From Haloplasma contractile (GTDB lineage Bacteria; Bacillota_I; Bacilli_A; Haloplasmatales; Haloplasmataceae), in contig JAENYC010000002.1 of the NCBI GenBank assembly GCA_016841945.1, forward strand, positions 100,275-164,274: a stretch of 64,000 nt of DNA, given 5' to 3'. The notes beneath the pieces are model-generated. The model did not search any database. It was not told the DNA's origin and worked only from the letters and a program-made list of their open reading frames with translations. How positions within the stretch are numbered: the stretch's first letter is position 1; every line of letters begins with the position of its first letter. This document shows positions 955 to 59,299 of this stretch, piece after piece. Both the position numbers and the translations under genes were made by a program.

Positions 955-976
955 ATAAAAAAGAGGAGGAAGAAAA

Positions 977-2314: not shown

Positions 2315-2328
2315 AGAAGAGGGATAAC

Positions 2329-3321: not shown

Positions 3322-3346
3322 AAAATTAGAAGGGAGAACATTTTTT

Positions 3347-5611: not shown

Positions 5612-5629
5612 TATTAAACAAAATTAATT

Positions 5630-5661
5630 TAGCAACTACACTACTTGTAGTGTAGTTGCTA
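5630..5661 (+). promoter_or_regulatory. perfect 14-bp-stem hairpin (TAGCAACTACACTA-cttg-TAGTGTAGTTGCTA) inside the ABC operon
   Basis: Read directly. No U-tract on the + strand (A-run follows), so it is not a classic terminator. Possible mRNA processing or stability element between the surface-protein gene and the second permease. Confidence 0.4.
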
Positions 5662-5681
5662 AAAAAATAATGAGGTGATTT

Positions 5682-6521: not shown

Positions 6522-6545
6522 TAAAAATAAATGGGAGGTTTTATC

Positions 6546-9147: not shown

Positions 9148-9158
9148 AGGAGGATTCT

Positions 9159-10478
9159 ATGAAAAAATTTAAACATTTACTGTTTTTAATCGCATTTGTG
9201 GCTATATTTTTTACTATATCTAGTCATCAAGCATTTGCAAGTGAAGATGATTGGGAAAAAACATTCTTTGATGATTTTAGTGCCTACAGTATAGGAAAAG
9301 CAGAAGATAGTCAAGACTTTAAAGATGTTTGGACAAATGATTTATGGAGTGGGACAAATCCTACGGCACAAGATATCAATGATGTAGCAACAATTAAACA
9401 AGAAGGCGCTAATAAATATCTTAATTTAAATTATGATGGTAGTTTCTTCTACATTTCACCCCATAATTTCCGCGCTAAAGAATTTGAAGTATCATTTAAG
9501 ATGAGATCACATGACTTAACAAGTGCTTGGGTTGGTGTAGTAGTTAGAAAAGCGTACCGTGATGCAAGATTTAATGGAACGACTAATATGATGCTTTATT
9601 TTAGAACGATATATATAGAAGACGAATCTAATAACGTTGTTGGTGAAATGATTCAAGTGCAAGCTCAACGAGGTGGAAGTTTAAGTACGACTGATTTGAC
9701 GAGTGAAATAGTTGATGCCAGTGGTAATACTGGTAGTGAAGCTGTATTATCTGTAACTTATATGTATCCTGAACAAGGAGATATTGATACAGCACAACAA
9801 ATTAAGGATAATTGGTATGATATTAAAGTCGTTGTAAGTGACACAGGAGAAAGAAATGAAGCCAGTTATGAAATGTATATTAATGATTCTCTTATTGGAA
9901 CATTAACTCATGCAAGAAGCTCATTAGATACATATGGTTTCATTAGTTTAACTGCATGTACTTCTGATATTGATGTCGATGATTTTTCAATAACATCAAA
10001 TGACACTGTATCACCTCCACCAATTGTTCGCGTTAATAAATTAGTTGGACAAACTGGTACTGTGAATGAAACTATTTCATTACCGGGTTCTGAAGATGGT
10101 GATATCGAGTTAATCGGTGATGCTGATAATAAAGTTGAAATCGTAATAGGAAAACCTGATGGTACTGATGAAACATTAGCTGAGGGTGTTTATGAGTTTA
10201 CACCAACTGAAGAAGGCATTTATACGGTAACATATCTTGCGAAGAATGCATCAAATGGAGAAGGTACTGTTGAGTTCATGATCAGTGTTCAAGGTGATGA
10301 ATCTACGACGACAACAACTACAGAAGATACAAATGATATAACAACAACTGAAAATGATACAACACCATCTGCCGATGATAGTGATGATAGCAATGGTTCA
10401 ACTATAATTATCGTTGTTATTGCGGCAATTGTCTTAGTTGGTGGTGCAACTTCATATTTCATATTAAGAAAAAAATAA
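9159..10478 (+). CDS. surface-anchored protein of unknown function (signal peptide, Thr/Asp-rich stalk, C-terminal TM anchor)
   Basis: RBS AAGGAGGA. Signal peptide MKKFKHLLFLIAFVAIFFTISSHQAFA. C-terminus ESTTTTTTEDTNDITTTENDTTPSADDSDDSNGSTIIIVVIAAIVLVGGATSYFILRKK. Same architecture as 3347..5611. Confidence 0.6.
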   Translation: MKKFKHLLFLIAFVAIFFTISSHQAFASEDDWEKTFFDDFSAYSIGKAEDSQDFKDVWTNDLWSGTNPTAQDINDVATIKQEGANKYLNLNYDGSFFYISPHNFRAKEFEVSFKMRSHDLTSAWVGVVVRKAYRDARFNGTTNMMLYFRTIYIEDESNNVVGEMIQVQAQRGGSLSTTDLTSEIVDASGNTGSEAVLSVTYMYPEQGDIDTAQQIKDNWYDIKVVVSDTGERNEASYEMYINDSLIGTLTHARSSLDTYGFISLTACTSDIDVDDFSITSNDTVSPPPIVRVNKLVGQTGTVNETISLPGSEDGDIELIGDADNKVEIVIGKPDGTDETLAEGVYEFTPTEEGIYTVTYLAKNASNGEGTVEFMISVQGDESTTTTTTEDTNDITTTENDTTPSADDSDDSNGSTIIIVVIAAIVLVGGATSYFILRKK

Positions 10479-10489
10479 AAAGATGATAT

Positions 10490-10516
10490 ATAGGTTGCTT
10501 AAAAGCAACCTATATT
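10490..10516 (+). terminator. hairpin ATAGGTTGC-ttaaaa-GCAACCTAT after the surface-protein gene
   Basis: Read directly. The + strand U-tract is weak; the complementary side has a good T-run. Confidence 0.4.
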
Positions 10517-10543
10517 CATTAAATGGTACTAAACGAGGCGATT

Positions 10544-12406
10544 ATGGATACTTTAATTTATGCTAAAAAAGAATTGAATAAATATTGGCAACTGGTAACG
10601 GGTTTAAATTATTGTGAAATTGAACTAGTTGTTGATAAAAACAAAGCAAGTCGTTATTATAAACAGGATTATGCAGAAAAATTTGACGATGCATATGAAA
10701 TTGATGTAATAAAAGGTATTGGGAAAATTCTTGGTATTAACAAAAGAAGTGTATTATTAGGTATTTATCATTTCTTTCAAGCCTTAGGATGTAAATTTCT
10801 TAAACCAACAGCATCTGGAGAAGTCATTGTCAATAAAGATAAACGCTTATGTACTGTTCAATTAGAATTTGTGCCGTCAAACAGACATCGTGGCATTTGT
10901 ATTGAAGGGTCTGTAAGTATTGAAAATTGTTTGAATATGATTGAATGGGCACCAAAAGTTGGGTTTAATGCTTACTTTATTCAATTTAGACAAGGACATG
11001 AATTTTTTGAACGTTGGTATATGCATCAAAGGAATGATGTTATCTCTAAAGACAAAGAAAAATTTACATTAGAAGAATCTTATGCTTATACAAAAAAAAT
11101 GATACAAGAGATTAAAAAAAGAGATTTAATCTATCATGCCGTCGGTCATGGTTGGACTTGTGAATGTCTTGGTATTGATTCGCTGGGTTGGCAAAAAGCT
11201 AACCATGATATTTTAACAGATGATAAAAAACAACTTTTAGCTTTAGTCAATGGGAAACGTGAATTTTATGAAGGTATACCATTAAATACGAATTTATGTT
11301 ATTCAAACCCAAAAACAAAAGAACTGTTAGTTAATGAAATTGTAACCTATATTAAAAATCATTCTGAAATAGATATACTACATTTTTGGTTAGCAGATAA
11401 TTTTAATAATTGGTGTGAATGCGATGAATGTCAGAAGAAAAATCCGACTGACCACTATGTGGAAATCCTTAATCAAATTGACGCGCAATTAACCGCTTTA
11501 AATATTGACACCAAAATTGTGTTTTTGATTTATTATGAACTACTGTATACAGCAATAAATGCAAAGATAAAAAATTCTGATCGTTTTATCATGATGTTTG
11601 CCCCAATCTCAAGGACTTATACTAAATCTTATTTAACCAATGGTAATTTACCAGATAGATTGGATTGTCAAATACCAGATTTTCAATTAAATAAAATTAA
11701 ATTATCAACTAAGATTGAAGATAATTTAGCGTTTTTGTTTAAGTGGCAAGAGGTGTTTAATGGTGATAGTTTTTTATTTGATTATCATCTAATGTGGGAC
11801 CCTTTTAAGGACTTTCCACAGTTACGTCTATCAAACGTGATTTATGATGATATTCATTCATTAAAACAATTGAAGTTAAATGGTTTAGTTAGTTGTCAAT
11901 TACAACGTGTTTTCTTTCCGACAGCCCTTGCAATGTATGTGATGGGGAAATCACTATCTGATAGTAGTCTAGCTTATAGTGAGATTGTTGATGAATTCTT
12001 TACCTATTCATATGGAAAGCATGCTGCTTTTATAAAACAAATTCTTATCTGTGCATCTGAACTTCTTCACTATGAATATCTTAGAGGAGAGTTACCTGTT
12101 GTATCAAAAGAATTAGTGCCAAAATATGAAAAGTTAGAAAAGAAGATGAAAGATTATGATGAGTTGTTAAGTCAGATAGATAGTGAAAATGAACAAATAA
12201 AAGTTATTCAATACTTTACTAAATTCTTGAGTATGTTAGCACCGGTCTTAGCAAAAAAAGCATCAGGAGCTTCTGTTAATACATTAGAAGCAATGTTTAA
12301 ACCAGTAAGAGAATATATGTTAAAACATGAAATGGATTCACAAACCGTTTTTGATGGTTATTTCTTTGATTTAATTGTAGGTGATTTTATTAAAGCAACT
12401 TGGTAA
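10544..12406 (+). CDS. hypothetical ~620-aa protein with Cys/Glu-rich motifs; possible glycoside hydrolase (speculative DUF1680/GH127-like metal site)
   Basis: ATG 10544 has a GAGG SD 6 nt upstream (track start 10523). Motifs HGWTCECLG and HFWLADNFNNWCECDECQKK. Lies among carbohydrate-active genes. No family can be assigned confidently. Confidence 0.45.
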   Translation: MDTLIYAKKELNKYWQLVTGLNYCEIELVVDKNKASRYYKQDYAEKFDDAYEIDVIKGIGKILGINKRSVLLGIYHFFQALGCKFLKPTASGEVIVNKDKRLCTVQLEFVPSNRHRGICIEGSVSIENCLNMIEWAPKVGFNAYFIQFRQGHEFFERWYMHQRNDVISKDKEKFTLEESYAYTKKMIQEIKKRDLIYHAVGHGWTCECLGIDSLGWQKANHDILTDDKKQLLALVNGKREFYEGIPLNTNLCYSNPKTKELLVNEIVTYIKNHSEIDILHFWLADNFNNWCECDECQKKNPTDHYVEILNQIDAQLTALNIDTKIVFLIYYELLYTAINAKIKNSDRFIMMFAPISRTYTKSYLTNGNLPDRLDCQIPDFQLNKIKLSTKIEDNLAFLFKWQEVFNGDSFLFDYHLMWDPFKDFPQLRLSNVIYDDIHSLKQLKLNGLVSCQLQRVFFPTALAMYVMGKSLSDSSLAYSEIVDEFFTYSYGKHAAFIKQILICASELLHYEYLRGELPVVSKELVPKYEKLEKKMKDYDELLSQIDSENEQIKVIQYFTKFLSMLAPVLAKKASGASVNTLEAMFKPVREYMLKHEMDSQTVFDGYFFDLIVGDFIKATW

Positions 12407-14443
12407 GTGGGTGATAGAATGAAGTTATCTAATATATTTCAAAATGGTATGGTTCTACAGCAAAAACAAGACATACGCATTTTTGGAAAGACAGACGTAA
12501 ACTGTCTTGTAGAAGTAAGTCTAAAAAATACAAGAACACTAATTGTACATAAGCACCAGGTTAAAAGTGATGATTCAGGTCTATTCTTGTGTATATTACC
12601 TCCCTTAAAGGGGGGCTATGATACCTATTCTTTAACAGCAACATCTTGTGATGAGACAGAGGTAATAGATGATATTGTCATTGGTGAATTATATGTTACC
12701 GCAGGCCAATCGAATATGGCTTATCCCCTTGACTATTTAGAGGATAATGGTAAATATTTAAAAAAGTGTGATGATTATATTCGTTTTATGAATATAGAGG
12801 ACCTCACCATTCTAAGACCCTATCATCCCTTAGATAATCTTAAGAGCGGTCAATGGACATATACAACAAATCAAGCAGTATTAAAATGTTCAGCCATCGG
12901 GTTTGTGTTTGCGAGTCAATTAAAAGAGAGACTAGACGTTCCAATCGGTCTTATAAACACGGCCGTTGGTGGCAGCAGTATAGATAGTTGGTTGTCTCAT
13001 AAAGCAATTGATGAAAATGAACAGATTAAAGATTATCTCATAGATGAAGGACGATTTGTAGAGGAAGATGATTACCATAAGATGGGTGATTTGAATTATA
13101 CGGTTAAAGCAGGTATTTATAATGAGAAGATTACACCAATAAGGCACTTAACAATTGGTGGTATCTTGTGGTATCAAGGAGAAAACAGCGTCAAGGATTT
13201 TGGAAGTGCTAAATATTATCGTATTGCCTTAAAAACATTAATTGCCCAGTTTAGAAATATTTTTAGGAATGAACACTTACCAATTGTAGTCTGTCATATC
13301 GCTTTAAATTATTACCCACAAGGAAGTGAATTTGCTGTTCCTATGATCAATGAAGCCATTAGTTTAGTGAGTCAAGAACATCAACATGTTTATCAAATAC
13401 CAGTTTATGATTATTATCCCAATTGGTTAATCGAGGATGGGCGTGATTTATATAATCCGATTCACCCTGTTACGAAAAGTTTTATTGGTTTAAGAATAGC
13501 GAATACATTATATAAAAATGAATATACCCATTTAGGAGGCGCTAAACCGCCGATACTAAGTGATATTCAATATTTTAAAGATATACTAGTTTTAACCTTT
13601 AATGATGTATTTGAAGGACTTAAAACGGATGATGATGATACAATTTATGGTTTTACCATTGCAAGTGATAATCATGTATATCATGATGCGACTGCTAAAA
13701 TCATCTCTCATAATCAAATTGAAGTGTACAATGAATATGTGAAAGAGCCCAAATATGTAACCTATGGTTTCTTTCTCTATAATACAATATGTAACGTTAA
13801 AAACAGTGAGGAATATCCCCTTATTCCTTTTAGAAATACATATGACTCCTGTGATCAAGCTAAATATTATGCACCTGCCAAATATTTATATGGTGAAAGT
13901 TTATTAGAATATGAAAATAATTTCTTTCCTCAATTTGGTGGAGCTTATCATAAACCATGCTGGGATAGTGGAAGATTAAATAATCAAGGAAGGGTAGCTT
14001 TATCATTAGATAAACAATATAAAACTCAAGGGAATAGTAGTATACAAGTAAGCTATGAAATTTTAACTCAAGGCGTAAATTATATTGGGGTTTCACCCAT
14101 TATCGATTACGTTGGTCATCACCACCATATTGAAAACTTTAATTATTTAAAAGTAGATATCATGAGTATGCAAAAAAATGTAAAGTTTCTTGGTGTGTTG
14201 ATAAAAACCCAGCAAAATGATGTTTATTTACTTCCTGTTAGAGAGGCCTCTTATTTAGGGGTAACAATGGCTAAGAATGAGTTTATAACCTATACCATTG
14301 ATTTAAGAAAAGCCTATCGTTCAGATACATGTATAATTGATTGTAGTCAGGAAATGTTACAATCAATTTATGAAATGCAGTTGACATTTCAAGTAAAAGA
14401 AAATGGCGTATTGTATATCGACCATCTACGATACCATCTGTGA
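12407..14443 (+). CDS. sialate O-acetylesterase-like (SASA/DUF303, SGNH-type) carbohydrate esterase
   Basis: N-terminal FQNGMVLQQ and the diagnostic GQSNM motif (VTAGQSNMAYP) of the SASA family. Start may be GTG 12407 or ATG 12419. Stop overlaps the next gene. Confidence 0.7.
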   Translation: MGDRMKLSNIFQNGMVLQQKQDIRIFGKTDVNCLVEVSLKNTRTLIVHKHQVKSDDSGLFLCILPPLKGGYDTYSLTATSCDETEVIDDIVIGELYVTAGQSNMAYPLDYLEDNGKYLKKCDDYIRFMNIEDLTILRPYHPLDNLKSGQWTYTTNQAVLKCSAIGFVFASQLKERLDVPIGLINTAVGGSSIDSWLSHKAIDENEQIKDYLIDEGRFVEEDDYHKMGDLNYTVKAGIYNEKITPIRHLTIGGILWYQGENSVKDFGSAKYYRIALKTLIAQFRNIFRNEHLPIVVCHIALNYYPQGSEFAVPMINEAISLVSQEHQHVYQIPVYDYYPNWLIEDGRDLYNPIHPVTKSFIGLRIANTLYKNEYTHLGGAKPPILSDIQYFKDILVLTFNDVFEGLKTDDDDTIYGFTIASDNHVYHDATAKIISHNQIEVYNEYVKEPKYVTYGFFLYNTICNVKNSEEYPLIPFRNTYDSCDQAKYYAPAKYLYGESLLEYENNFFPQFGGAYHKPCWDSGRLNNQGRVALSLDKQYKTQGNSSIQVSYEILTQGVNYIGVSPIIDYVGHHHHIENFNYLKVDIMSMQKNVKFLGVLIKTQQNDVYLLPVREASYLGVTMAKNEFITYTIDLRKAYRSDTCIIDCSQEMLQSIYEMQLTFQVKENGVLYIDHLRYHL

Positions 14444-14451
14444 GGTGTGTT

Positions 14452-16632
14452 ATGGATAACTTTGAAAATGCAAAATGGATTTGGAAAGATACAAAGTTTA
14501 CGAAAAATGATTATGCTTATTTTAGAAAAGAATATAGGATTGACAAACCTGTAGAAGAGGCCTTCATTCATGTATCCGCTCATAATCATATGAAACTATA
14601 TGTAAATGGAAAAATTGTCAGTGACTTTGTGACACCGATATCTTCAGTTGCGACAAAAAGAAAATATTATTTAAGTTATGATGTGAAGGAATATTTAACA
14701 CAGGGGATGAATTGTTTCTATCTAGAGGTATTATACTTAGGGGGTAGTGGGCAAAATTATGTGAATGCAGCACCAGGATTTATATTAAGTGGTTTAATTC
14801 AATGTGAAAACAAAACCATTGAAATTAGTTCAAATGAATCATGGAAAACAACAAAAAAAATAGCTCACGGCATTAATATGCCATATCAACAATCACGACA
14901 TGTCACACCTGTTGAGTTATTTGATGCTAGATTGTATGAAGAAGAGGCAAAGTTTGTATCTTATGATGATAAGGATTGGATAAATGCGATTACCTCTCCT
15001 ATGCAGCTACAACAACCTATACTTGTGAAACAAAAAATCGCAGAAGGTAGCATTCATCAAACCATTTATCCAAAAAAAATAGGAAAGAGAAAAAAAGGGT
15101 TTCAAGTATTTGATGTTGGTAGAATCATCACGGGTTTTGTTCGAATAAAATTAAAAGGTTATGAAGGAAAACAAATTACAATTCGTTATTCTGAAGATTT
15201 ATTGAATCATCGAGTGAAACACAATGTTGCCAATGAACAAAGTGATTATTATTGTGATTACTATATCATGAATGATTGCGATGAACAAACCTGGCAAGCT
15301 GATTTTACTTATAAATCATTTCGCTATTTTGAAATAGAAAACTATCCAGAAGAACTAGATGAGCATCAAGTCATAGCGATTGTATGTTCTACTGGGATAG
15401 AAGTTAATGGTTATTTATCTAGTAAAAGTTATCCTATCTTAAATGATTTATATGAGGTTTCTGTGAATACTCAGTTGAATAATACGCAAGGGATGTTAGT
15501 GGATTGTCCACATCGAGAACAAGCACAATATCTTGGCGATAGTGATTTGCAAGCGGAAAACCTCATCTATAATTTCTCGAATCATTATGAATTAATTGAT
15601 AAAGCATTACAGGATTTTTCTGATATGCAACAAGTTGAAGGATTTTTTCCTTTCGTAGCACCAACTAATTTTTTAGATACGCAGTTTGAGTTGCGTATTT
15701 GTGAATATGATTTTTATTTTATCACTTTAATGGAGAAGGCTTATAAAATCAATAGAGATAAACGTATAATCAAACAATATTATCCTATTGCGAAGAAAAT
15801 GTTAGCCCATTATCTTTCCTTAATTGATGAAACAGGATTAATTCCTAAGGATAAAGGATGGCATATTTCAGATTGGCCTTATCCAAAGGTAGATGAAACA
15901 GGTCATTATTTGACATTTCAAAACATGTTAGCATTGAAAGTTTTGAGAATAATGATAGAATTTGGAAAATTAATGGATGAATCCGTGAATTATTATATAA
16001 AACTAGAAAATCAATTGCGATTTTCTATCGTTAAGTACTTAAAAAAAGATGGTTTGTTCATTGATTCATCGAATTCAAGTAAAAAACATCAAGGTATCAA
16101 TGCTTTGGCATTAGAGTTAAATTTATTTAATGAAGAAGAAAAAAAAGTTGCTCTAGATTATATCATTAAACAAAAATTTGCATCAAGTGTAATATTAGGA
16201 AGAACAGTGTTAAGACAACTCTTTGAGCATGAACAAACTGAAGCAGCGTTTCAATATATGTTTAATAATGAAAAAGGATGGGGGAATATTTTAAGGTTAG
16301 GTAATAAAACCATGTGGGAAGGATTTGATGATATTGAAAGTCATAGCCATGCATGGAATTGTTATCCGCTTCGAATGATTCAAGAATATGTGGTGGGTTT
16401 AAAAATGATTGAACCAACAAAAGTATATATTACACCACAGTTTGTCAATAGAGTTTCTGATATCACCGCAAAGGTACAAAGTATGTACGGTAATATAACT
16501 TTTGGTTATGAAAAGTATGAAAATAAAGTGATTTTTACCTATTTCATACCTGCAGGAATAGAAGCAATACTACATTTTAAAGACAAAGACCATGTTTTAG
16601 TTAATGGAAAATTGACGAAAATTAAATTATAA
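14452..16632 (+). CDS. alpha-L-rhamnosidase, GH78 family
   Basis: GAGGTG SD, then ATG 14452. N-terminal AKWIWKD...YFRKEY...LYVNG matches the GH78 N-terminal domain. DCPHREQAQYLGDSD matches the GH78 (alpha/alpha)6 catalytic-domain motif DCPxRE(R)xxW/YxGD. Confidence 0.75.
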   Translation: MDNFENAKWIWKDTKFTKNDYAYFRKEYRIDKPVEEAFIHVSAHNHMKLYVNGKIVSDFVTPISSVATKRKYYLSYDVKEYLTQGMNCFYLEVLYLGGSGQNYVNAAPGFILSGLIQCENKTIEISSNESWKTTKKIAHGINMPYQQSRHVTPVELFDARLYEEEAKFVSYDDKDWINAITSPMQLQQPILVKQKIAEGSIHQTIYPKKIGKRKKGFQVFDVGRIITGFVRIKLKGYEGKQITIRYSEDLLNHRVKHNVANEQSDYYCDYYIMNDCDEQTWQADFTYKSFRYFEIENYPEELDEHQVIAIVCSTGIEVNGYLSSKSYPILNDLYEVSVNTQLNNTQGMLVDCPHREQAQYLGDSDLQAENLIYNFSNHYELIDKALQDFSDMQQVEGFFPFVAPTNFLDTQFELRICEYDFYFITLMEKAYKINRDKRIIKQYYPIAKKMLAHYLSLIDETGLIPKDKGWHISDWPYPKVDETGHYLTFQNMLALKVLRIMIEFGKLMDESVNYYIKLENQLRFSIVKYLKKDGLFIDSSNSSKKHQGINALALELNLFNEEEKKVALDYIIKQKFASSVILGRTVLRQLFEHEQTEAAFQYMFNNEKGWGNILRLGNKTMWEGFDDIESHSHAWNCYPLRMIQEYVVGLKMIEPTKVYITPQFVNRVSDITAKVQSMYGNITFGYEKYENKVIFTYFIPAGIEAILHFKDKDHVLVNGKLTKIKL

Positions 16633-16646
16633 AGGAGTTGTTGGAA

Positions 16647-17660
16647 ATGGAGAAGAGAAAGGCGGATTTTAATCAGCTCTTAAAAGTATTAAAAAGAGAA
16701 GTACCCGATAGACCGACTTTATTTGAATTTATCATTGATAAAGATGTCTATAATAAATATGTCAATCAAGATTATCTAAAAATGAAAGATAATAAAGCTG
16801 ACATACGTATTACCATGAACATGTTTAAAAATTTAGGATATGATTTTGGTGTTGTATATGGTTCTGATTTTATTTTTCCAAAAGATGAAATACAACAATC
16901 AGAGAGTATCTCATTAAACGATGGCGCTGTGATTACAGATAGAGCATCTTATGAAATGTATCAATGGCCAAACCCTGAAGATTATGATTATTCTAGATTA
17001 GATTTTGATGAGATACCAGAAGGCATGAAAGTCATCGTCTATGGACCAGGTGGCGTATTAGAAAATGTGATTGCACTAGTCGGTTACAACAATCTCTGCT
17101 ATCTATTATATGATGATAAGGAACTTGTCAAAGAAATATTTGATCAAATTGGAAGTCGTTTGGTAAAATATTATGATATATGTTGTCAATATGCATCAGT
17201 TGGTGCTTTAATCGTAAATGATGATTGGGGATTTGTTTCTCAAACCATGTTGTCAACTGATGATATGAGAAAATATGTTGTTCCTTGGCATAAAAGAATC
17301 GTTCAAACCATTCATCGTTATAAGAAACCAGCAATCCTACATTCATGTGGTAATTTAGGAGAACTAATGGAAGATGTGATTGATGTGATTCAATATGATG
17401 CCAAACATTCTTTTGAGGATAAAATTATTCCCATTGAAGAAGCTTATGAAAAATGGGGTGACCGAATCGCGTTGTTAGGTGGTCTGGATTTAAACTTTTT
17501 ATCAACAGCAACATCAGATGAAATTGAAAAAAGAAGTAGTGCCATGTTAGATAGAGTAAAGGGTCGTGGTGGGTATGCTTTAGGTTCAGGCAATAGTATT
17601 CCATCCTATGTGCCAGAAGAAAATTATAAAGCAATGCTTAAAGCAGTTTCCATTTATTGA
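16647..17660 (+). CDS. uroporphyrinogen decarboxylase (URO-D) family protein (MtaA/CmuA-like fold), function unknown
   Basis: AAAGGAG SD 9 nt before ATG 16647. C-terminal region LLGGLDLNFLSTATSDEIEKRSSAMLDRVKGRGGYALGSGNSIP is typical of the URO-D/methyltransferase superfamily. Confidence 0.55.
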   Translation: MEKRKADFNQLLKVLKREVPDRPTLFEFIIDKDVYNKYVNQDYLKMKDNKADIRITMNMFKNLGYDFGVVYGSDFIFPKDEIQQSESISLNDGAVITDRASYEMYQWPNPEDYDYSRLDFDEIPEGMKVIVYGPGGVLENVIALVGYNNLCYLLYDDKELVKEIFDQIGSRLVKYYDICCQYASVGALIVNDDWGFVSQTMLSTDDMRKYVVPWHKRIVQTIHRYKKPAILHSCGNLGELMEDVIDVIQYDAKHSFEDKIIPIEEAYEKWGDRIALLGGLDLNFLSTATSDEIEKRSSAMLDRVKGRGGYALGSGNSIPSYVPEENYKAMLKAVSIY

Positions 17661-17686
17661 CAACCAAAAAATGACGTGTATAATAG
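17658..17686 (+). promoter_or_regulatory. sigma-A-like promoter TTGACA-16-TATAAT for the LacI-family gene
   Basis: The -35 TTGACA overlaps the stop of the upstream gene; -10 TATAAT is about 30 nt before ATG 17717. Confidence 0.4.
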
Positions 17687-17716
17687 GAAATAGACTAATT
17701 ATAAAGGGGAAATTGT

Positions 17717-18730
17717 ATGAAAGTTACAAGAAAACAAGTCGCTGAACGTGCCAAAGTAAGTGAACAAACCGTCTCTTATGTGATGAATAAGACGCGTATG
17801 TTTTCTAAAGAAATAGTAGATAGAGTGCATCAAGCAGTAAAAGAGTTAAACTACTATCCTAACCTTAATGCAAGAAGTTTGGCTACTAAAAGGGGCTACA
17901 GTGTGAGTTTTATTGTTCATGATATTACTAACCCCATTTATAATGAAATTATGTTGGGGTTTCAAGATGCAGCGAGAGAAAAGAATTACTTCGTTAGTAT
18001 CTGTGATGCACATAAAGATATCGATAATTATGTGTCAAATTTAATCGCAAGAAATCTTGAAGGTGTTTTTATTTATGTACTGGCAAACTATGATGAGTTA
18101 GGTTTTATAAAACGGTTTATAAATAATGATGTAAAAGTGGTGTTAGGAAGTAAATTACCGATTCAAAATAAAAAAGTGAATGATAAAGTATCTGTGATAA
18201 ATGTAGACCATGATAAAGGAATGGAACAAATCATTGACTATTTAGTTGGTTTAGGTCATAAGGATATTGTGTATTTATCAGGATTAAGTAAAGATCAAAC
18301 TTTTGATGACCGCTATGCATCATTTTGCAAGTATTATCAAAAGCATTTTGGTGAAAATCCAACGATTATAGAAAATGAATATCCATATGAAACAACTGTT
18401 GAAGTGGGTTATAAACTCGCGGAAAACTTAATACAAAGTAATAAAGAATTTACCGCAGTTGTTACAACGAATGATTTGATGGCTTATGGTGCAATGGATG
18501 CATTTAAAGCATGTGGGTTAGAGATTCCTAAGGATGTTTCTATTGTAGGTATCGATGATTTGATGTTTTCTAAATATACAAATCCGGCTTTAACAACTTT
18601 AGGTTTTGATAAAATTGAATATGGAAAGTCCGTTTTTAATAGTCTATATGCTGAAATATGTGGAAAACCAAAAACAAATTATAAAGTGGACACTTTCATA
18701 GTAAAACGTAATTCTTGTACAAATATTTAA
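17717..18730 (+). CDS. LacI-family transcriptional regulator
   Basis: N-terminal HTH MKVTRKQVAERAKVSEQTVSYVMNK. Periplasmic-binding-protein-like sugar-binding domain. Sits between GH78/URO-D and rhaA. Confidence 0.85.
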   Translation: MKVTRKQVAERAKVSEQTVSYVMNKTRMFSKEIVDRVHQAVKELNYYPNLNARSLATKRGYSVSFIVHDITNPIYNEIMLGFQDAAREKNYFVSICDAHKDIDNYVSNLIARNLEGVFIYVLANYDELGFIKRFINNDVKVVLGSKLPIQNKKVNDKVSVINVDHDKGMEQIIDYLVGLGHKDIVYLSGLSKDQTFDDRYASFCKYYQKHFGENPTIIENEYPYETTVEVGYKLAENLIQSNKEFTAVVTTNDLMAYGAMDAFKACGLEIPKDVSIVGIDDLMFSKYTNPALTTLGFDKIEYGKSVFNSLYAEICGKPKTNYKVDTFIVKRNSCTNI

Positions 18731-18753
18731 TATCGTTAAGTGTTTAATAATAG

Positions 18754-18780
18754 AAAATACCTATATTAGGTATTTTTCTT
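18754..18780 (+). terminator. rho-independent terminator (AATACCTA-tat-TAGGTATT + TTTTTCTT)
   Basis: Read directly, after the LacI gene. Confidence 0.65.
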
Positions 18781-18790
18781 AGACATCATA

Positions 18791-18802
18791 CTACACGTGT
18801 AG
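18791..18802. promoter_or_regulatory. perfect 12-bp palindrome CTACACGTGTAG upstream of rhaA; candidate LacI-family operator
   Basis: Read directly. Central CG as in many LacI-family operators. About 85 nt upstream of the rhaA start. Confidence 0.35.
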
Positions 18803-18884
18803 CAATCCCTTAGTAAAACACAGGATAATAGAAACAGTTGTTTAACACGGTAAGTATTATTTTTAAATGAAAAGGAGCATAAGA

Positions 18885-20102
18885 ATGAATACAATTAAAA
18901 AATATGAAATCGCAAAACAAATGTATAAAACAATCGGTGTAGATACTGACAAAGCGATTCAATTGTTAAGGGAAACGCCAATTTCCATACAGTGTTGGCA
19001 ATTGGATGATGTGACAGGTTTTGAAAATCGAACAACTGGATTAACAGGTGGAATTGCATCAACTGGTAATTATCCTGATAAACCAAAAAATATCGATGAG
19101 TTTAGAAAACATGCGGAAAAAGCATTAAGTTTAATACCTGGTAAAAAGAAGTTTAATCTTCACGCAATGTATTTAGATACAGATGATAAAATTGATAGAA
19201 ATGAAATTGAACCGAAACATTTTCAAAATTGGGTAAACTTTGCTAAAGAAAATAAAATAGGGTTAGATTTTAATCCAACATGTTTTTCACATCCATATAG
19301 TGAAGAAGGATTTACTTTATCGCATCAAGATGATACGATTAGAAATTTTTGGATTGAGCATGTAAAACGTACACGAATCATTAGTGATTATTTTGGGAAG
19401 GAATTAGGTGTTCGATCTGTTAATAATATCTGGATACCTGATGGATACAAAGATAAACCAATAGATCAATTAGCACCGAGAATGCGTTTAAAAGACAGTT
19501 TAGATGAAATATTTAAAGAAAAGATGAACAATCAAAATCATATAGATGCAGTTGAAAGCAAGTTATTTGGTCTTGGTAGTGAAAGCTATGTAACAGGAAG
19601 TCATGAGTTTTATACAAATTATGTCAAGAACACTAATAATGTAATCATTTGTTTAGATGCAGGTCATTATCATCCGACTGAAGTCATCAGCAGTAAAATA
19701 TCATCCTATTTAGCTTTTAATGAAGAAATTCTATTACATGTGAGCCGACCTGTCCGTTGGGATAGTGATCATGTTGTGTTGTTTGATGATGAAACAAAAG
19801 CCATCATGCATGAAATCGTAAGATGTAATGCATTAGATAAAGTCAATATCGGTTTAGACTTTTTTGATGGAAGTATTAATCGGATAGCGGCTACTGTATT
19901 AGGGTCTAGAAATACCCAAAAAGCATTATTATATGCTTTGTTAGAACCTGTACAATATTTCAAAGGACTTGAAAATAAAGGTGATTATACAAACCGATTA
20001 GCTTTAGTCGAAGAGATGAAGTCAATGCCATTTGGTTTTGTTTGGGATTATTTCTGTGAATTAGAAAATGTACCAATCAATTGGTTAAAGGAAGTAAACT
20101 AG
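18885..20102 (+). CDS. rhaA: L-rhamnose isomerase
   Basis: AAAGGAG SD, then ATG 18885. Near-colinear match to E. coli RhaA: [56 protein letters not shown](Y/F)[27 protein letters not shown]. Confidence 0.9.
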
Positions 20103-20111
20103 GAGGATTAG

Positions 20112-21365
20112 ATGAAATTTAATCAACTATCTGAAAGAAATCAAATCGTAGATACGATGAATCGTGTATATTATAATGGTTTAACCACAACATCCGGTGG
20201 GAATATATCAATTATAAATGAAAATCAAGATATTTATATTACACCAAGTGGGAAGGATAAAGGGAATTTAAAGGAATCAGATATTGTATTAATGAAAGCC
20301 AGTGGAGAAAAAGAAGGAAAAGGTAAACCGAGTGTAGAATATCCGTTTCATAAGAATATTTATGACAAAAGAACAGATATTAAAGCAATTTTACATGCTC
20401 ATCCTTCAGGTTTGGTGGCAATCAGTGCTGCAAGATTAGTACCTAAAATCGAACTTATTGCTTCACTAAAAACATTAATTCCCCGTATCTCAATTGCTAA
20501 ATATGCTTTGCCCGGAAGCAAAGTATTAGGTGATAATATCGCAAAGGAATTTGAAAAGGGAAATGATGTTGTGATTTTAGAGAATCATGGTGTTGTAATA
20601 GGTGCTAATCATCTACAAAGGGCTTATTTAGTCTTAGAAGCACTAGAATTTTATGTAATAACACAAATCCATGCGCTTTCATTAAAAGTTAATTTTTTAT
20701 ATAATGATAAAATGTCAATACCTAATGGTATACAAACAGATCAAACATATAAAAATGATTTGATTCATGGAAGAAAAGACATTATCAATATCATAAAACG
20801 AAGTTATAATCAAAGATTATTTACTGGTTTTAGTGGAACGATTAGTAAAAGGGTTAACAATCATGATTTTATCATCACACCAAAAAATTTAGACCGAATT
20901 GAAATAGAGAAATCAGATTTAGTTTATGTAAAAGATGGGATGGTAGAAAGCAATAAAAAAGCTTGCGAAACAATGATGCTTCATCATGATATTTATAAGA
21001 ATCACCCAGAAATCAATTCGATTATGATAGCGACACCTTCTCACATCATGGCTTTTGCGATTAGTGATAAAGTGTTTGATAGTCATATCATACCAGAAGG
21101 TTATATTATGTTAAGAGAAGTTCAAAAATGTAAGCCAACGCAATATGATGACATTGTTAACACAATATCTAAAAATACACCGATTATTTTAGTAGAAAAT
21201 AATTTTGTAATAGTGGCAGGTGAGAATTTACTTCAAACCTTTGACCGTTTAGAAGTATTAGAATTTGGTGCAAACGCATTAATAAAAGCAAATCAATTTA
21301 ATAAAATCTATAACATTACAGAACAAGAAATTAAAGAAATAAATACTCATTTTGATGTGTGGTGA
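20112..21365 (+). CDS. class II aldolase/adducin-domain protein with two tandem aldolase-II domains; putative rhamnulose-1-phosphate aldolase (RhaD-like)
   Basis: Domain 1 carries HAHP (ILHAHPSGLVAISAA). Domain 2 repeats the fold (MLHHDIY...IATPSHIMAFA). Positioned between rhaA and rhaB as rhaD would be. Confidence 0.6.
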   Translation: MKFNQLSERNQIVDTMNRVYYNGLTTTSGGNISIINENQDIYITPSGKDKGNLKESDIVLMKASGEKEGKGKPSVEYPFHKNIYDKRTDIKAILHAHPSGLVAISAARLVPKIELIASLKTLIPRISIAKYALPGSKVLGDNIAKEFEKGNDVVILENHGVVIGANHLQRAYLVLEALEFYVITQIHALSLKVNFLYNDKMSIPNGIQTDQTYKNDLIHGRKDIINIIKRSYNQRLFTGFSGTISKRVNNHDFIITPKNLDRIEIEKSDLVYVKDGMVESNKKACETMMLHHDIYKNHPEINSIMIATPSHIMAFAISDKVFDSHIIPEGYIMLREVQKCKPTQYDDIVNTISKNTPIILVENNFVIVAGENLLQTFDRLEVLEFGANALIKANQFNKIYNITEQEIKEINTHFDVW

Positions 21366-21369
21366 TTAG

Positions 21370-22842
21370 ATGAAAGTTTTAGCTTTTGATTTTGGCGCTA
21401 GTAGTGGAAGAGCGCTTCTAGGCGAATATAAAGATAATAATATCAGTTTAACAGAAATTCACCGTTTTTCAAATGACCCTGTCTATGTTAATAAAACTCT
21501 TTATTGGGATATTTTAAGACTTTATCATGAAGTAAAACAAAGCATTATAAAATGTGTTGCTTTAGGTCATGATGATATTGTATCAATTGGCATTGATACC
21601 TGGGGTGTTGATTTTGGCTTATTAGATAAAGATGGAAAGCTTTTGGAAAACCCAGTTCATTATAGAGATTGTAGAACCAATCACATAATGGAAAATGTCT
21701 TTAAAGAAATCAAAAAAGAAGAGTTGTATCAAAAAACAGGTATTCAAAACTTACATTTTAATACCATCTTTCAACTCGTTTCAATTAAAAAGAAACGAAA
21801 AGAATTATTAGATAGAGCTAAAACATTATTATTTATACCAGATTTAATTGCTTATTTTCTTACAGGTAATAAAAGTAGTGAATATACAGTTGCAAGTACA
21901 TCAGGTTTATTGAACATAGATACGAATGAATGGGACAAAGAATTACTTCAACAACTAGATATTCCTTCTCATTTGTTCCCTACAATTAAACAACCAGGTA
22001 CAATTTTGGGAAAACTAAGTGAAGAAGTCGCTAAAGAATGTGGAATAAAACCAGTAGATGTTATCCTAACAGCTAGTCATGATACTGCAAGTGCAGTTGT
22101 ATCTGTTCCTATAAAGTCTAAAAATAGTGCTTATATATCTTGTGGGACTTGGAGTTTATTGGGGAAGGAATTAGAACAACCGCTTATCAATCAGGAAGCT
22201 TTAAAACACAATTTTACGAATGAAGGTGGATATAATCATAAGATTAGATTCTTAAAAAATATTAGTGGTTTGTTTTTAATGCAAGAAGTTAAAAAAGATT
22301 GGGAAAAAAGAGGACAAAAATTGTCTTATGACAAGATTAATCATTTGATAGATGAAAGTAATGAGATCACAAGTTTTGTTAATCCGGATCATCCATTATT
22401 TAGTTCGCCACTAAATATGGAAGATAAAATAAATCAATTTATTAAACATACATATCAAAAAAATTTACAAACAAAAGGAGAAATAGCTCGTTCTATATTA
22501 GAGAGTTTAGCGTTAACATATAAAAATAAACTAGAGATTTTAGAAAGTATGACTAAAGAAACCCTAGATACCTTACACATTGTCGGTGGAGGTGGAAATA
22601 GTAAACATTTATGTCAGTTTACCGCAAATGCCACGAATAAAACAGTTTTAGCAGGACCTATTGAGGCAACCGCAATAGGTAATATCATTGTTCAATTAAT
22701 CTCAAAAGCTGAAATAAAAGATATTACTACTGCTAGAAACTTAATAATAGATAATTTTGATATCAAAACTTATTATCCCAAAGATATAAAAAGATGGGAA
22801 TATAAATATAGTAAATATAAACAATTATTTAGTAAATTATAA
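21370..22842 (+). CDS. rhaB: rhamnulokinase (FGGY kinase)
   Basis: N-terminal VLAFDFGASSGRALLG matches RhaB AVDLGASSGRVML. FGGY C-terminal motifs HIVGGGGNSKHLCQ. Confidence 0.8.
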   Translation: MKVLAFDFGASSGRALLGEYKDNNISLTEIHRFSNDPVYVNKTLYWDILRLYHEVKQSIIKCVALGHDDIVSIGIDTWGVDFGLLDKDGKLLENPVHYRDCRTNHIMENVFKEIKKEELYQKTGIQNLHFNTIFQLVSIKKKRKELLDRAKTLLFIPDLIAYFLTGNKSSEYTVASTSGLLNIDTNEWDKELLQQLDIPSHLFPTIKQPGTILGKLSEEVAKECGIKPVDVILTASHDTASAVVSVPIKSKNSAYISCGTWSLLGKELEQPLINQEALKHNFTNEGGYNHKIRFLKNISGLFLMQEVKKDWEKRGQKLSYDKINHLIDESNEITSFVNPDHPLFSSPLNMEDKINQFIKHTYQKNLQTKGEIARSILESLALTYKNKLEILESMTKETLDTLHIVGGGGNSKHLCQFTANATNKTVLAGPIEATAIGNIIVQLISKAEIKDITTARNLIIDNFDIKTYYPKDIKRWEYKYSKYKQLFSKL

Positions 22843-24427: not shown

Positions 24428-25231
24428 ATGCAAGTTATACAGTACGGGAATATTTATTATTTTGGATTTATTATGATAGGTATTGTGTTAACTATCGGGT
24501 GTGTATTTTTACTTCGAAACAAAAGTAGAAAATATATTCACAATTTTATCTTTATATTATTAGTATCAGCTTTTGTCCTTCATTTTCTTAAACTCTTGTT
24601 TGAACCTTATGTTAGTGGTTTGCCACAAACAATTAGAAAATCTACATTTGAAAACATATGTGCTGTGAGTACTTTATTGTTTCCTTGGTTTTATATATCG
24701 AAAAAGAAGTATTTACATGATTACATGGTTGTAATTGGTATATTAAGTGGTCTTTCAGCTTACATCATACCAACTGAAGCCTTAGGAAAAGATGTTTATA
24801 CATTTGATGTGATTCGCTTTTATTATGCACATTTGATTATTTTTTTAGCACCATTTCTGATGGTGTATTTTAAACTATATCGATTGGAATTAAAAAGAAT
24901 CTTTTTTATCCCATTTATTTTTTATGGCATCCTTGCTATAATTTTAATTAATGAAATAATCTTAATCACTATAGACTATGTAGAGGGAGATTTTAATTCT
25001 TTATTTGATCCGAATTACAGAAATTCATCTTTTATATTTGGACCTACAGAGTACTTTCAAAATGCTAGATGGATACTCACAATGTTTGTCCCTAAGTTTT
25101 TAATAATCCCTTTTTACTGGCCTATTATTTGGTTAATGATTCCAGCATATCTTTATATATGTCTATTTGGATTCATCATATGGTTAATATTTAATGGTAA
25201 AGAAATAAAAATAAGGAGTAAGAGAATATGA
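24428..25231 (+). CDS. polytopic integral membrane protein (YwaF/TIGR02206-like?), paralog 1
   Basis: RBS GGGGAG. About 7 TM helices. ENICAVSTLLFPWF region is analogous to the FPFHLC motif of the next gene. Confidence 0.45.
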   Translation: MQVIQYGNIYYFGFIMIGIVLTIGCVFLLRNKSRKYIHNFIFILLVSAFVLHFLKLLFEPYVSGLPQTIRKSTFENICAVSTLLFPWFYISKKKYLHDYMVVIGILSGLSAYIIPTEALGKDVYTFDVIRFYYAHLIIFLAPFLMVYFKLYRLELKRIFFIPFIFYGILAIILINEIILITIDYVEGDFNSLFDPNYRNSSFIFGPTEYFQNARWILTMFVPKFLIIPFYWPIIWLMIPAYLYICLFGFIIWLIFNGKEIKIRSKRI

Positions 25232-26010
25232 TAGAGTTTATTCGTAAATTTTTTGGTTATTATCAGTATGAAAATGAAGAAGGTGTTCTTGGGCTACCTG
25301 AACCCTTTAAAGATGAACTAGGCCAAGGTGCATTTTCTGACTGGAGACATTTTGTTTTTATTATCTTAGTTGTTTTATTATGTGCTATCTTATACCAAGT
25401 CTTTAAAAGATATAAAAGTGCCGGGATTAGAACCGTCTTCGTATTATCTATTATGATGTTTACAGTTCGGGTAATTAACCAAGTGGCAAGAGCGATAATG
25501 GGGGCCGAAAATCCAGCGTTACGAGCGTTTCCCTTTCACTTGTGTACCGTGATGTCTTTCTTATTACCACTTGTTGTGATATTTAATTGGAAAAAGCTTA
25601 AGACACCTGTATATACTTTATCCATGATGGGTGGTATTATTACCATTATATTAGGCGAATATTTTGAAAATCAATTCTTAACCTTTTCTGCTTTAGAAGG
25701 GATGAGTGCCCATACCATATTAGTACTCATTCCAATTATTGAAATAGCAACAGGAGAGTTTAAGTTTGAGTTTAAAAAAGCATGGACAGTTTTTATTGCC
25801 ATGGTAATATTAATGTTGTGGGCAACCCTAGCCAATGAAGTTTTCTTTAGAGGATATGATACAAACTATATGTATTTAAAAGAAAATGGATTGCCTGATA
25901 ATTTGGGTGGAGATGTTTATTTCTTAATATATGTAGTGATTTTCTTATTGATGTTTTCCATAATATTTGGGATTCCATCCCTATATCGCAAGATAAAATA
26001 TAAAAATTAA
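25228..26010 (+). CDS. polytopic integral membrane protein (YwaF/TIGR02206-like?), paralog 2
   Basis: 4-nt overlap with the upstream gene (translational coupling). FPFHLCTVMSFLLP motif. Multiple TM helices. Confidence 0.45.
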   Translation: MIEFIRKFFGYYQYENEEGVLGLPEPFKDELGQGAFSDWRHFVFIILVVLLCAILYQVFKRYKSAGIRTVFVLSIMMFTVRVINQVARAIMGAENPALRAFPFHLCTVMSFLLPLVVIFNWKKLKTPVYTLSMMGGIITIILGEYFENQFLTFSALEGMSAHTILVLIPIIEIATGEFKFEFKKAWTVFIAMVILMLWATLANEVFFRGYDTNYMYLKENGLPDNLGGDVYFLIYVVIFLLMFSIIFGIPSLYRKIKYKN

Positions 26011-26041
26011 AAAAGTTGCCTCGATTGAGGCATCTTTTTTA
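26011..26041 (+). terminator. rho-independent terminator (TGCCTC-gatt-GAGGCA + TCTTTTTT)
   Basis: Read directly. Confidence 0.7.
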
Positions 26042-26079: not shown

Positions 26080-26190
26080 TTAGCAATAATATCCTCCACC
26101 ATTGTAGCATGTGCAACCGATGATGGCTAACAAAATAAATAGTACAAGAATTGTACCAAATGTATTATATCCACTATATCCTTGACCCAT
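26080..26190 (-). CDS. tiny YjcZ-like transmembrane protein (36 aa), not in the ORF track
   Basis: Minus strand: RBS AAGGGAGGG, 7 nt, then ATG. Translation MGQGYSGYNTFGTILVLFILLAIIGCTCYNGGGYYC* is a Gly/Tyr-rich N-terminus plus a single TM helix, as in the YjcZ/TIGR01732 tiny-TM family of Bacillales/Clostridia. Confidence 0.6.
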   Translation of the reverse strand: MGQGYSGYNTFGTILVLFILLAIIGCTCYNGGGYYC

Positions 26191-26225
26191 AAATTTCCCT
26201 CCCTTCTTTTAGAATTATATAATTA

Positions 26226-26324
26226 TTAATAGTAATTATAACAAGTACAACCAATAATGACTAATAGGATAAATAAAACTAAAATTGTACCATACATATT
26301 ATATCCACTGTATCCACCAGACAT
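26226..26324 (-). CDS. tiny YjcZ-like transmembrane protein (32 aa), tandem paralog, not in the ORF track
   Basis: Minus strand: RBS AAAGGAGGAG, then ATG. Translation MSGGYSGYNMYGTILVLFILLVIIGCTCYNYY*. About 80% identical to the adjacent copy. Confidence 0.6.
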   Translation of the reverse strand: MSGGYSGYNMYGTILVLFILLVIIGCTCYNYY

Positions 26325-26568
26325 TATGACTCCTCCTTTTTTAATGGTTATTATAAGGTATGATAAATAATACGACTGTATTTAATTGATACGCATAATA
26401 TGATTAAATTTAATCAAAAACAAATATATATCCTTTGCTTATATTTGAATTAAATCATTTATCATTTATTGTATAATGGTATAATTAAGAAAAAAGGATG
26501 ATAACTGTTGAAAAAACTAATCAATTTTCTTACAATAATAGAGATAATAATATAATGGAGGTTCAAAA

Positions 26569-32431: not shown

Positions 32432-32644
32432 TTAAGTGATAGAATCCATTGGATACTGCGATTTCTCTTTTCTGATGTCATCTATTCTAGATGCTAATAA
32501 TTTAATGATATCTTCTATCTCTTTTGATAGTTGATGATACATATTTTTAACCTCCTCATCTTTTTCATTTATTGATGATTTTTTAAAACTAGATAATAAA
32601 TCTTTCGCATCATAAAGTGTTTTTTCTATTTTATTCAGTGTCAT
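32432..32644 (-). CDS. small DUF1657-like protein (70 aa)
   Basis: ATGA overlap with upstream DUF421. Size and coiled character fit the DUF1657 partners of YetF-like proteins (spore-associated). Confidence 0.4.
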   Translation of the reverse strand: MTLNKIEKTLYDAKDLLSSFKKSSINEKDEEVKNMYHQLSKEIEDIIKLLASRIDDIRKEKSQYPMDSIT

Positions 32645-33501
32645 TTTGTATTCAACTCCTTATGATTATCATAATCAGTGTAGGTTTGAATACAATTTTT
32701 AATTTTGTTTACACAAATTTTATACATTTCTTTAACTTCTTGTTGATTTGTATCAAAATAATAAGTCATTAAGTCGTTTTTAAGTTTATGTAGTTTAACG
32801 AATATCATTTGATGAGATTCATCGTTTAAATCGATATAGAATTGTCCACTTTCATCAATTTCAGCAAACATCACTTCTTTAATATCTTTAATCCCTAGAT
32901 TTACTAATTTATCATATAACCATGTTTTGGTTAAATCTAGGTTTTTAAGAACATTTTTGTTTATCTTACCCTCTTCAACAATCAAATGACTAATCCCACT
33001 ATATGAAACATTAAGTTTTAAATCACTAGGTGTTGCAGGTTGTTGATTTCTTTTTTTCAGCACACTAATTTTTCCATCTGTTTCCAAAAATGCATATTCT
33101 ACATCCGATAAGCTAAAGACATTTTTTTCTCGTAATTTTGATAATAGCTCATCTATATTGATTCGTTCTTTTCGCATATTTTTCATCACAATATTTCCTT
33201 TATTGATTAACATTGTTTGATTACCCACTATCAAATTCCTTATGGGTTTACTCTTCAATGATAGATAAGATGTGAGTATTTGATAAAGAGCCAATGCGAC
33301 AACTGCAGGTAGAAGAACTAAGAAATCTTGATTTAAATCTATCGCAAGAGAACCAGTTATTGTTCCAATCGTTATACCTACTATATAATCAAAGAAGGTC
33401 ATTTGTGATATTTCTCTTTTTCCCATTGCTCTTGCCAGGATTAATAATGTGAGATAGGCAAGTGTCACTCTTATTAAAATTAACGCGTAATCTGGCATCA
33501 T
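32641..33501 (-). CDS. DUF421/YetF-family membrane protein
   Basis: N-terminal TM segments (ALILIRVTLAYLTLLILARAMGKRE.SQMT.FDYIVGITIG) followed by a soluble YetF-type domain. Confidence 0.6.
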   Translation of the reverse strand: MMPDYALILIRVTLAYLTLLILARAMGKREISQMTFFDYIVGITIGTITGSLAIDLNQDFLVLLPAVVALALYQILTSYLSLKSKPIRNLIVGNQTMLINKGNIVMKNMRKERINIDELLSKLREKNVFSLSDVEYAFLETDGKISVLKKRNQQPATPSDLKLNVSYSGISHLIVEEGKINKNVLKNLDLTKTWLYDKLVNLGIKDIKEVMFAEIDESGQFYIDLNDESHQMIFVKLHKLKNDLMTYYFDTNQQEVKEMYKICVNKIKNCIQTYTDYDNHKELNTK

Positions 33502-33640
33502 AATATCTCCTTATTTTGTTTTTTACTCTTCTCTATTATTGACTTTATATTAAATACTATTCTATTTTAAAAGTATAAAAATTTGTTGAATGATATGATA
33601 TAATGTATACTATACTAGAATATATAGATTGGGAGGTACC

Positions 33641-58937: not shown

Positions 58938-58959
58938 AAACTAAATGAAAAGGAGTGAA

Positions 58960-59295: not shown

Positions 59296-59299
59296 AGGA

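Follow-up and report, generated by a model that had tools for sequence, protein, structure and literature searches.

Two overlooked YjcZ-family genes in tandem behind a candidate mother-cell-type promoter in a Haloplasmataceae-like genome

Two tandem genes of the YjcZ family, here called A and B, were found on the minus strand at 26080 to 26324 of the window, as we call the whole 64-kb stretch of DNA that was analysed. The genes had been left unannotated, and their assignment to the family rests on profile scores. The explanation that we favour, with a probability of roughly 0.65, is that the pair forms a bicistronic unit with a mother-cell-type promoter and encodes YjcZ membrane micro-proteins linked to sporulation.

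Layout of the gene pair

The genes were located with a listing of open reading frames of at least 20 amino acids and a reading of the minus strand. Gene A encodes a peptide of 32 residues (MSGGYSGYNMYGTILVLFILLVIIGCTCYNYY) at 26226..26324, and gene B a peptide of 36 residues (MGQGYSGYNTFGTILVLFILLAIIGCTCYNGGGYYC) at 26080..26190, both on the minus strand with the stop codon included. The coordinates of the first-pass annotation were exact, and the strong Shine-Dalgarno sites that it had described were seen. On the minus strand, AGGAGGAG at 26330..26337 stands 5 nt ahead of the ATG of gene A and was compared with the corresponding sites of other family genes, and AAGGGAGGG at 26197..26205 stands 6 nt ahead of the ATG of gene B, inside the spacer between the two genes. 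This spacer is 35 nt long and has no terminator. The motifs GYSGYN, GTILVLFILL(V/A)IIG and GCTCYN occur in both peptides, and neither contains a single charged residue (D, E, K, R or H).

A terminator scan detected a bidirectional intrinsic terminator with T-runs on both strands (TGCCTCAATCGAGGCA) at 26017..26032. Its G+C-rich hairpin starts 47 nt past the stop codon of gene B and is common to the gene pair and the convergent plus-strand gene at 25228..26010. Two terminator-like sites were found, compared with 0.2 expected in shuffled sequences. A TAGTCA-17-TATAAT sequence inside gene A was considered as a separate promoter for gene B and dropped, since sigma-70 sites were not enriched in the promoter scan (9 found and 6.9 expected). 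The Rfam scan returned no RNA family anywhere in the window, and a profile search of the six-frame reading frames returned no YjcZ copy in the 64 kb besides A and B.

Between 26010 and 26569 there was no open reading frame of 70 or more amino acids, so the stretch of about 560 bp, earlier described as empty in the reading-frame annotation, is genuinely empty at that length. Neither peptide occurred as an exact sequence in a collection of 15 billion proteins, whereas two larger proteins of the window, GlpK and the product of the neighbouring gene at 26569-27606, did occur there exactly. The gene calls behind that collection therefore skipped both peptides, and genes A and B were overlooked solely because of their tiny size.

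Membership in the YjcZ family

With the Pfam model PF09680 (YjcZ_2), gene B scored 32.8 bits and gene A 30.2 bits, both above the gathering cut-off of 21, and the E-values of the two peptides were 5e-8 and 3e-7, far from anything that chance would give. The search with TIGR01732 (tiny_TM_bacill), which the first-pass annotation had proposed as a check and which NCBI names 'YjcZ family sporulation protein', placed the 36-residue peptide of gene B above the cut-off of 21.35 with 27.4 bits and the 32-residue peptide of gene A slightly below it with 18.8 bits. Judged by these scores, A and B are members of the YjcZ family (PF09680 / TIGR01732), and the earlier description of the pair as tiny, tandem YjcZ-family membrane proteins holds. 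They also have the traits of the family, which are a tiny size (about 26-70 amino acids), one ILVLFILLxII helix and Gly-rich flanks.

Homologues were retrieved with the concatenated sequences of A and B as query, followed by a profile search. The retrieved proteins carry the signature ILVLFILL(A/V)IIGC(T/V/A)CY. Among 8000 candidates scored, the profile search gave 3870 clusters at E<=0.01, many of which bear the NCBI name of the family. These matches include at least five annotated YjcZ proteins of Haloplasma contractile and two of a 3.2-Mb 'Mycoplasmatota bacterium' genome, and further matches came from several Haloplasmataceae metagenome-assembled genomes (MAGs), Paenibacillus, Priestia, Evansella and Alteribacter. 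In one alignment (A1) the residues ILVLFILL were invariant and in a second (A2) the residues V, F, I, L and L, an invariance that was partly forced by the word-based search. The C-x-C motif, which had been thought unusual for the family, stands straight after the helix in 92 of the 122 retrieved members, a set biased towards relatives of the query (as GCTC, GCSC, GCVC, GCAC, ACSC and others). As far as these sequences represent it, a C-x-C tail is common at least in the query's half of the YjcZ family, and that part of the first-pass annotation was not supported.

A scan of species-representative genomes yielded at least 29 loci, and when their six-frame reading frames were searched with the profile, arrays of 2-5 tandem copies proved to be the rule (L002, L003, L009, L011, L015, L017, L021, L025, L026 and L028). 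Such arrays, made up of genes that resemble A and B in architecture and likewise have strong Shine-Dalgarno sites, were present in Haloplasmataceae, Bacilli MAGs, Paenibacillus, Bacillus and Evansella. The tandem arrangement is normal for the YjcZ family.

When compared with B. subtilis YjcZ and the family around it, the window pair shares the tiny size, the single conserved hydrophobic helix (ILVLFILLVIIG), the Gly-rich N-terminal tail, the short Cys/Gly/Tyr tail and the multicopy tandem genes; a CATAnnnTA motif also stands upstream, as one would expect of a gene in the sigma-K regulon, and the pair scores above the Pfam cut-off. It differs in its host, which is Haloplasmataceae-like and not Bacillus or Paenibacillus, and in the 32-residue copy that stays slightly under the TIGR01732 cut-off. 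The closest YjcZ relatives of A and B are those of the Haloplasmataceae. The annotated YjcZ proteins of Haloplasma contractile, Haloplasmataceae MAGs and the 3.2-Mb 'Mycoplasmatota bacterium' (P0017, P0148, P0175, P0195, P0008, P0183, P0142 and P0170) share the window signature ILVLFILL(A/V)IIGC(T/A/V)CY, and arrays of this type have 2-3 genes, all of them preceded by a CATAT(G/T)ATA element and a strong Shine-Dalgarno site. The closest orthologue type of gene A is the third gene of these arrays. The paralog order differs, with the V-type gene first in the window but last in L002, L003 and L011. At its locus the window holds two copies and not three. In the literature that was searched, there was no experiment that defines the function of any YjcZ protein.

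Substitution pattern between the two genes

Genes A and B were aligned codon for codon over 30 codons, 25 of which encode identical residues, in agreement with the identity of about 80% that had been noted earlier. At the DNA level 17 codons differ, and 12 of these 17 differences are purely synonymous. By Nei-Gojobori counting, pS was 0.71 and pN 0.13 over the 30 codons. In the part that encodes the helix and the C-x-C motif (codons 12-30), pS reached 0.87, which is saturated, and pN was 0.046. The regions upstream of the two genes, compared by eye and unaligned, have the Shine-Dalgarno site alone in common.

The predominance of synonymous differences marks A and B as protein-coding sequences and removes a DNA repeat as an alternative. 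With saturation at synonymous sites and conservation of the amino acids, the duplication that gave rise to A and B is old, and the identity of about 80% has been kept up by selection at the protein level. These counts thus show purifying selection on the protein sequences of A and B, and on this pattern of substitutions both reading frames are genuine protein-coding genes.

A promoter element upstream of gene A

The region upstream of gene A was inspected for a promoter of the sigma-E or sigma-K type, as had been proposed, and a -10 element of the mother-cell type was found. The distance to the ATG of gene A is 38 nt from the start of this element, CATACCTTA at 26362..26354, and 29 nt from its end. 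Together with the sequence ahead of it, it gives ACAGTCGTATTATTTAT-CATACCTTA, which spans 26379..26354, and the whole promoter-like element ACAGTCGTATTATTTATCATACCTTA (26354..26379, minus strand) was recognised as a sequence match, its function being putative.

In B. subtilis, the sigma-K consensus is KCACM-N15-GCATANNNTA and the sigma-E consensus TYATATTT-N12-KCATANANTN (PMC3416734; PMC517825), and yjcZ is a member of the sigma-K regulon (PMC517825). The window element CATACCTTA matches the sigma-K-type pattern CATAnnnTA. Unlike the B. subtilis sigma-K consensus, the -35 region of the window is off in spacing and makes a poor sigma-K match: the AC dinucleotide lies 15 nt upstream of CATACCTTA, 2 nt off the expected distance of about 17. 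An ATA with a 16-nt gap to the -10 element fits the spacing of sigma-E, which suits the sequence no less well. The element therefore suggests a promoter of the 'mother-cell type', a wording chosen because the sequence does not separate sigma-K from sigma-E and the identity of the sigma factor is a matter of analogy.

Of 51 family genes in other genomes, 32 have the pattern CATAnnnTA in the interval that lies 20-75 nt ahead of the start codon, whereas about 1.4 would be expected among 51 genes from a background of 0.027 per gene interval. Most copies of the motif are located at -36 to -45 (Paenibacillus and Bacillus) or at -28 to -41 (Haloplasmataceae), and the family genes that lack it are mostly downstream members of arrays. 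In three Haloplasmataceae-type arrays it was found in 9 of 9 genes, in 8 of them as CATAT(G/T)ATA. Four further loci (L031-L034) also have it, and in L033 the arrangement ACACG-N16-CCATATATTA is inside the published spacing. Taken at the level of sequence, these counts show a conserved family-wide -10 motif.

In the window the motif stands ahead of gene A only and not of gene B, which is consistent with a bicistronic unit. Both strands taken together, this AT-rich DNA contains 97 copies of CATAnnnTA, corresponding to a chance of about 4% in the relevant 56-nt interval, so that the single occurrence in the window would be weak evidence without the conservation across genomes.

The YjcZ promoters of Paenibacillus and Bacillus (L009, L012, L015, L017, L025, L027 and others) have in addition a strongly conserved block, aCAAAcAyCCAATCAc, at -31 to -16 from CATA, which is far longer than a sigma-K -35 element and absent from the Haloplasmataceae loci and the window. 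The block may be a regulator-binding site. It was scored as a GerE box against what we take to be the strict consensus; only 3 of 22 matched and the block is missing in the window, and this candidate was rejected.

Genomic surroundings

Ten nearby reading frames were scanned with Pfam and included an ArsA-like ATPase, TMEM164-like membrane proteins, a Crp/Fnr regulator, a ScdA-type protein and an APH-type kinase; none of these neighbours of the gene pair was related to sporulation. By eye, the product of the divergent neighbour at 26569-27606 looked like an aldose 1-epimerase. The window pair sits between this gene and a TMEM164-like membrane-protein gene. In several Haloplasmataceae genomes, a YjcZ gene or array lies directly downstream of plsY (L002 1259..3075, L003 1820..3300, L031 9239..10105 and L032 669..1535), where plsY was recognised by eye in L002 and L003 and by a precomputed Pfam match to G3P_acyltransf in L031 and L032. 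The Haloplasmataceae-type arrays thus adjoin plsY and the window pair is located elsewhere, so that YjcZ genes move around. Around the glpK gene of a related locus (L030) there were no YjcZ genes, so the locus is not positionally conserved.

Several other features of the window were observed. The plus-strand stretch 24428..26010 encodes two adjacent paralogous membrane proteins that match the TMEM164 family, named after a eukaryotic protein, with 37 and 91 bits, and they are preceded by an ArsA-like ATPase with an HSP20-like domain. An encapsulin nanocompartment operon is located at 58945..60097 (plus strand), where the gene for an encapsulin-associated ferritin-like cargo protein of 116 amino acids (TIGR04535, 139.7 bits) immediately precedes that for a family 1 shell protein (NF041155, 263.4 bits). 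The next gene, at 60188..61207, is nitroreductase-like. The same-strand block at 1..22842 (plus strand), as judged from the translations only, appears to encode parts of a sugar ABC transporter, large secreted or glycoside-hydrolase-like proteins, a LacI-type regulator and the isomerase, aldolase and kinase of rhamnose catabolism. The content of this block suggests a free-living, saccharolytic lifestyle.

The host and the question of sporulation

The GlpK protein of the window shares 85% of its residues with the GlpK proteins of Haloplasma contractile and a 'Mycoplasmatota bacterium', and about 77% with those of Bacillaceae. This similarity, like the closest YjcZ relatives, points to a Haloplasmataceae-like organism with a G+C content of about 29%. 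The type species of the Haloplasmataceae was described as wall-less, contractile and non-sporulating.

The first-pass annotation had placed DUF421 and DUF1657 genes at 32.4-33.5 kb and had taken them, together with the YjcZ pair, as a hint that the organism sporulates. Both genes are there (32432..33501, minus strand, Pfam scan), and the DUF421 gene can be described more exactly as 2Duf-like: its product of 286 amino acids combines a YetF-type DUF421 domain with a weak match to DUF1657 at the C-terminus, and a DUF1657 gene of 70 amino acids follows it. By domain matches, the 286-residue protein has the '2Duf' architecture and length, and it matches the sequence of the YetF crystal structure 3C6F. 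A sigma-G-like motif, GAATA-N17-AATAATA at 33562..33534, ends 32 nt before the ATG of the 2Duf-like gene; with this one included, a search of both strands of the window, 128 kb in total, gave 7 matches of the kind. A survey of Firmicutes detected 2Duf-like genes (285-290 amino acids) in about every second spore-forming member of the Bacilli and in no asporogenous one, and plain YetF homologues occur in non-sporulators too (PMC10126465).

On a Haloplasmataceae contig, a YlbD_coat gene adjoins a YjcZ gene. A phylogenomic study found that sporulation genes were vertically inherited in Haloplasmatales (PMC10868615), and in another analysis Turicibacter, of which strain H121 has 60 annotated sporulation genes, was grouped with H. 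contractile (PMC4807225). Reading the translations of the 64-kb window by eye revealed no core spo gene, and the literature searched on sporulation in Haloplasma and Haloplasmataceae contained nothing decisive. Taken together, the mother-cell-type -10 element and the 2Duf-like locus on the one side and the absence of a core spo gene from the window on the other leave sporulation of this organism as a hint that has been strengthened but not proven. It is possible, though we regard it as rather doubtful, that Haloplasmataceae still run a functional late-sporulation programme in which mother-cell-type promoters would serve the YjcZ arrays and a forespore-type promoter the 2Duf/DUF1657 operon.

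Discussion

We considered whether the two peptides are something other than YjcZ genes of a sporulating lineage. Their small size and AT-rich surroundings, and nothing more, would suit chance reading frames in a repeated non-coding element. The substitution pattern, with saturated synonymous sites and conserved amino acids, effectively refutes this; in addition the HMM scores exceed curated cut-offs and thousands of homologues agree with A and B in frame and in the placement of the Shine-Dalgarno site, so that we give it practically no credence. Small hydrophobic toxins, either of type I toxin-antitoxin systems or holin-like and for instance aiding the lysis of the mother cell, would be an alternative to structural spore components, and peptides of 32-36 residues with one hydrophobic helix in multiple copies do superficially resemble type I toxins such as Fst, TxpA and BsrG, which are hydrophobic single-helix peptides of about 30 residues. 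Late expression in the mother cell, if it occurs, would also suit a lysis role. Type I toxins and holins usually have charged tails, however, and the window peptides have no charged residue; nor was there a signal of an antisense RNA in the Rfam and promoter scans (no match, and 9 promoters for 6.9 expected), the strong Shine-Dalgarno sites are not sequestered, and the matches in Pfam and NCBIfam were to the YjcZ family and to no toxin family. With a likeness to Fst, TxpA and BsrG in size only and no homology to them, a toxin function appears improbable. Still less can be said for precursors of a ribosomally made, Cys-modified peptide or bacteriocin (RiPP), which short Gly/Cys/Tyr-rich peptides in tandem, near-identical copies might bring to mind. 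No modification enzyme, protease or export ABC transporter was detected by Pfam among the ten nearby reading frames, a set that excludes 26569-27606; the helix is the conserved part and there is no arrangement into leader and core, and the contexts in other genomes are unrelated to each other. We regard a RiPP function as very improbable.

A different objection accepts A and B as real YjcZ genes and assumes that the lineage has lost sporulation, so that the peptides would act in the membrane of growing or stationary cells and CATAnnnTA would be read by another sigma factor or merely be inherited. Haloplasma contractile, the sole described species of its genus and the closest relative with a name, is not known to form spores, yet it has at least five annotated YjcZ genes and the GlpK that is 85% identical to that of the window. 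The window without a core spo gene, and a genomic context of YjcZ genes that varies between genomes and is not specific for sporulation, point in the same direction. Against it stands the -10 motif: in the Haloplasmataceae arrays either all genes or all first genes have retained it at a constant distance, which argues that the specialised promoter continues to be used. A loss is also contradicted by the 2Duf-like and DUF1657 genes of the window with their sigma-G-like motif, since 2Duf-like genes were confined to spore-forming Bacilli (PMC10126465), and by the YlbD_coat gene beside a YjcZ gene and the reported vertical inheritance of sporulation genes in Haloplasmatales (PMC10868615). On balance we consider a loss of sporulation unlikely, although it deserves to be kept in mind.

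We therefore return to the sporulation-linked bicistronic unit as the preferred explanation. Genes A and B would most likely be transcribed as one unit that starts at the mother-cell-type promoter with the -10 element at 26362..26354 and ends at the bidirectional terminator at 26017-26032, with a separate strong Shine-Dalgarno site for the translation of each cistron. From the example of B. subtilis yjcZ we infer that expression would occur late in the mother cell by RNA polymerase with sigma-K (or sigma-E). The uncharged ILVLFILL(V/A)II helix would insert the peptides as single-pass proteins into a membrane derived from the mother cell, either the mother-cell membrane itself or the outer forespore membrane. 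At the surface of the spore, the Gly/Tyr-rich N-terminal tails and the Cys-x-Cys/Tyr C-terminal tails could then serve in packing or cross-linking. Both the membrane location and the coat-related role are what the composition of the peptides alone would predict.

Genes A and B are previously unannotated additions to a large, named family that is already annotated in related genomes, and by themselves they add little to the knowledge of YjcZ proteins. In practical terms they mark an annotation gap, as genes of this kind are shorter than gene callers confidently accept; the NCBI pipeline already names identical-looking genes in related genomes. The CATAnnnTA motif at a fixed distance in very distant hosts makes YjcZ genes handy markers of a mother-cell-type regulon. 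If Haloplasmataceae do run a late-sporulation programme, this organism and those related to it would be cryptic endospore formers, or the compartment-specific sigma regulons would have been turned to another developmental use. In conclusion, the YjcZ pair and the 2Duf-like operon in a relative of Haloplasma provide a cheap and testable hint of sporulation in a poorly studied lineage.
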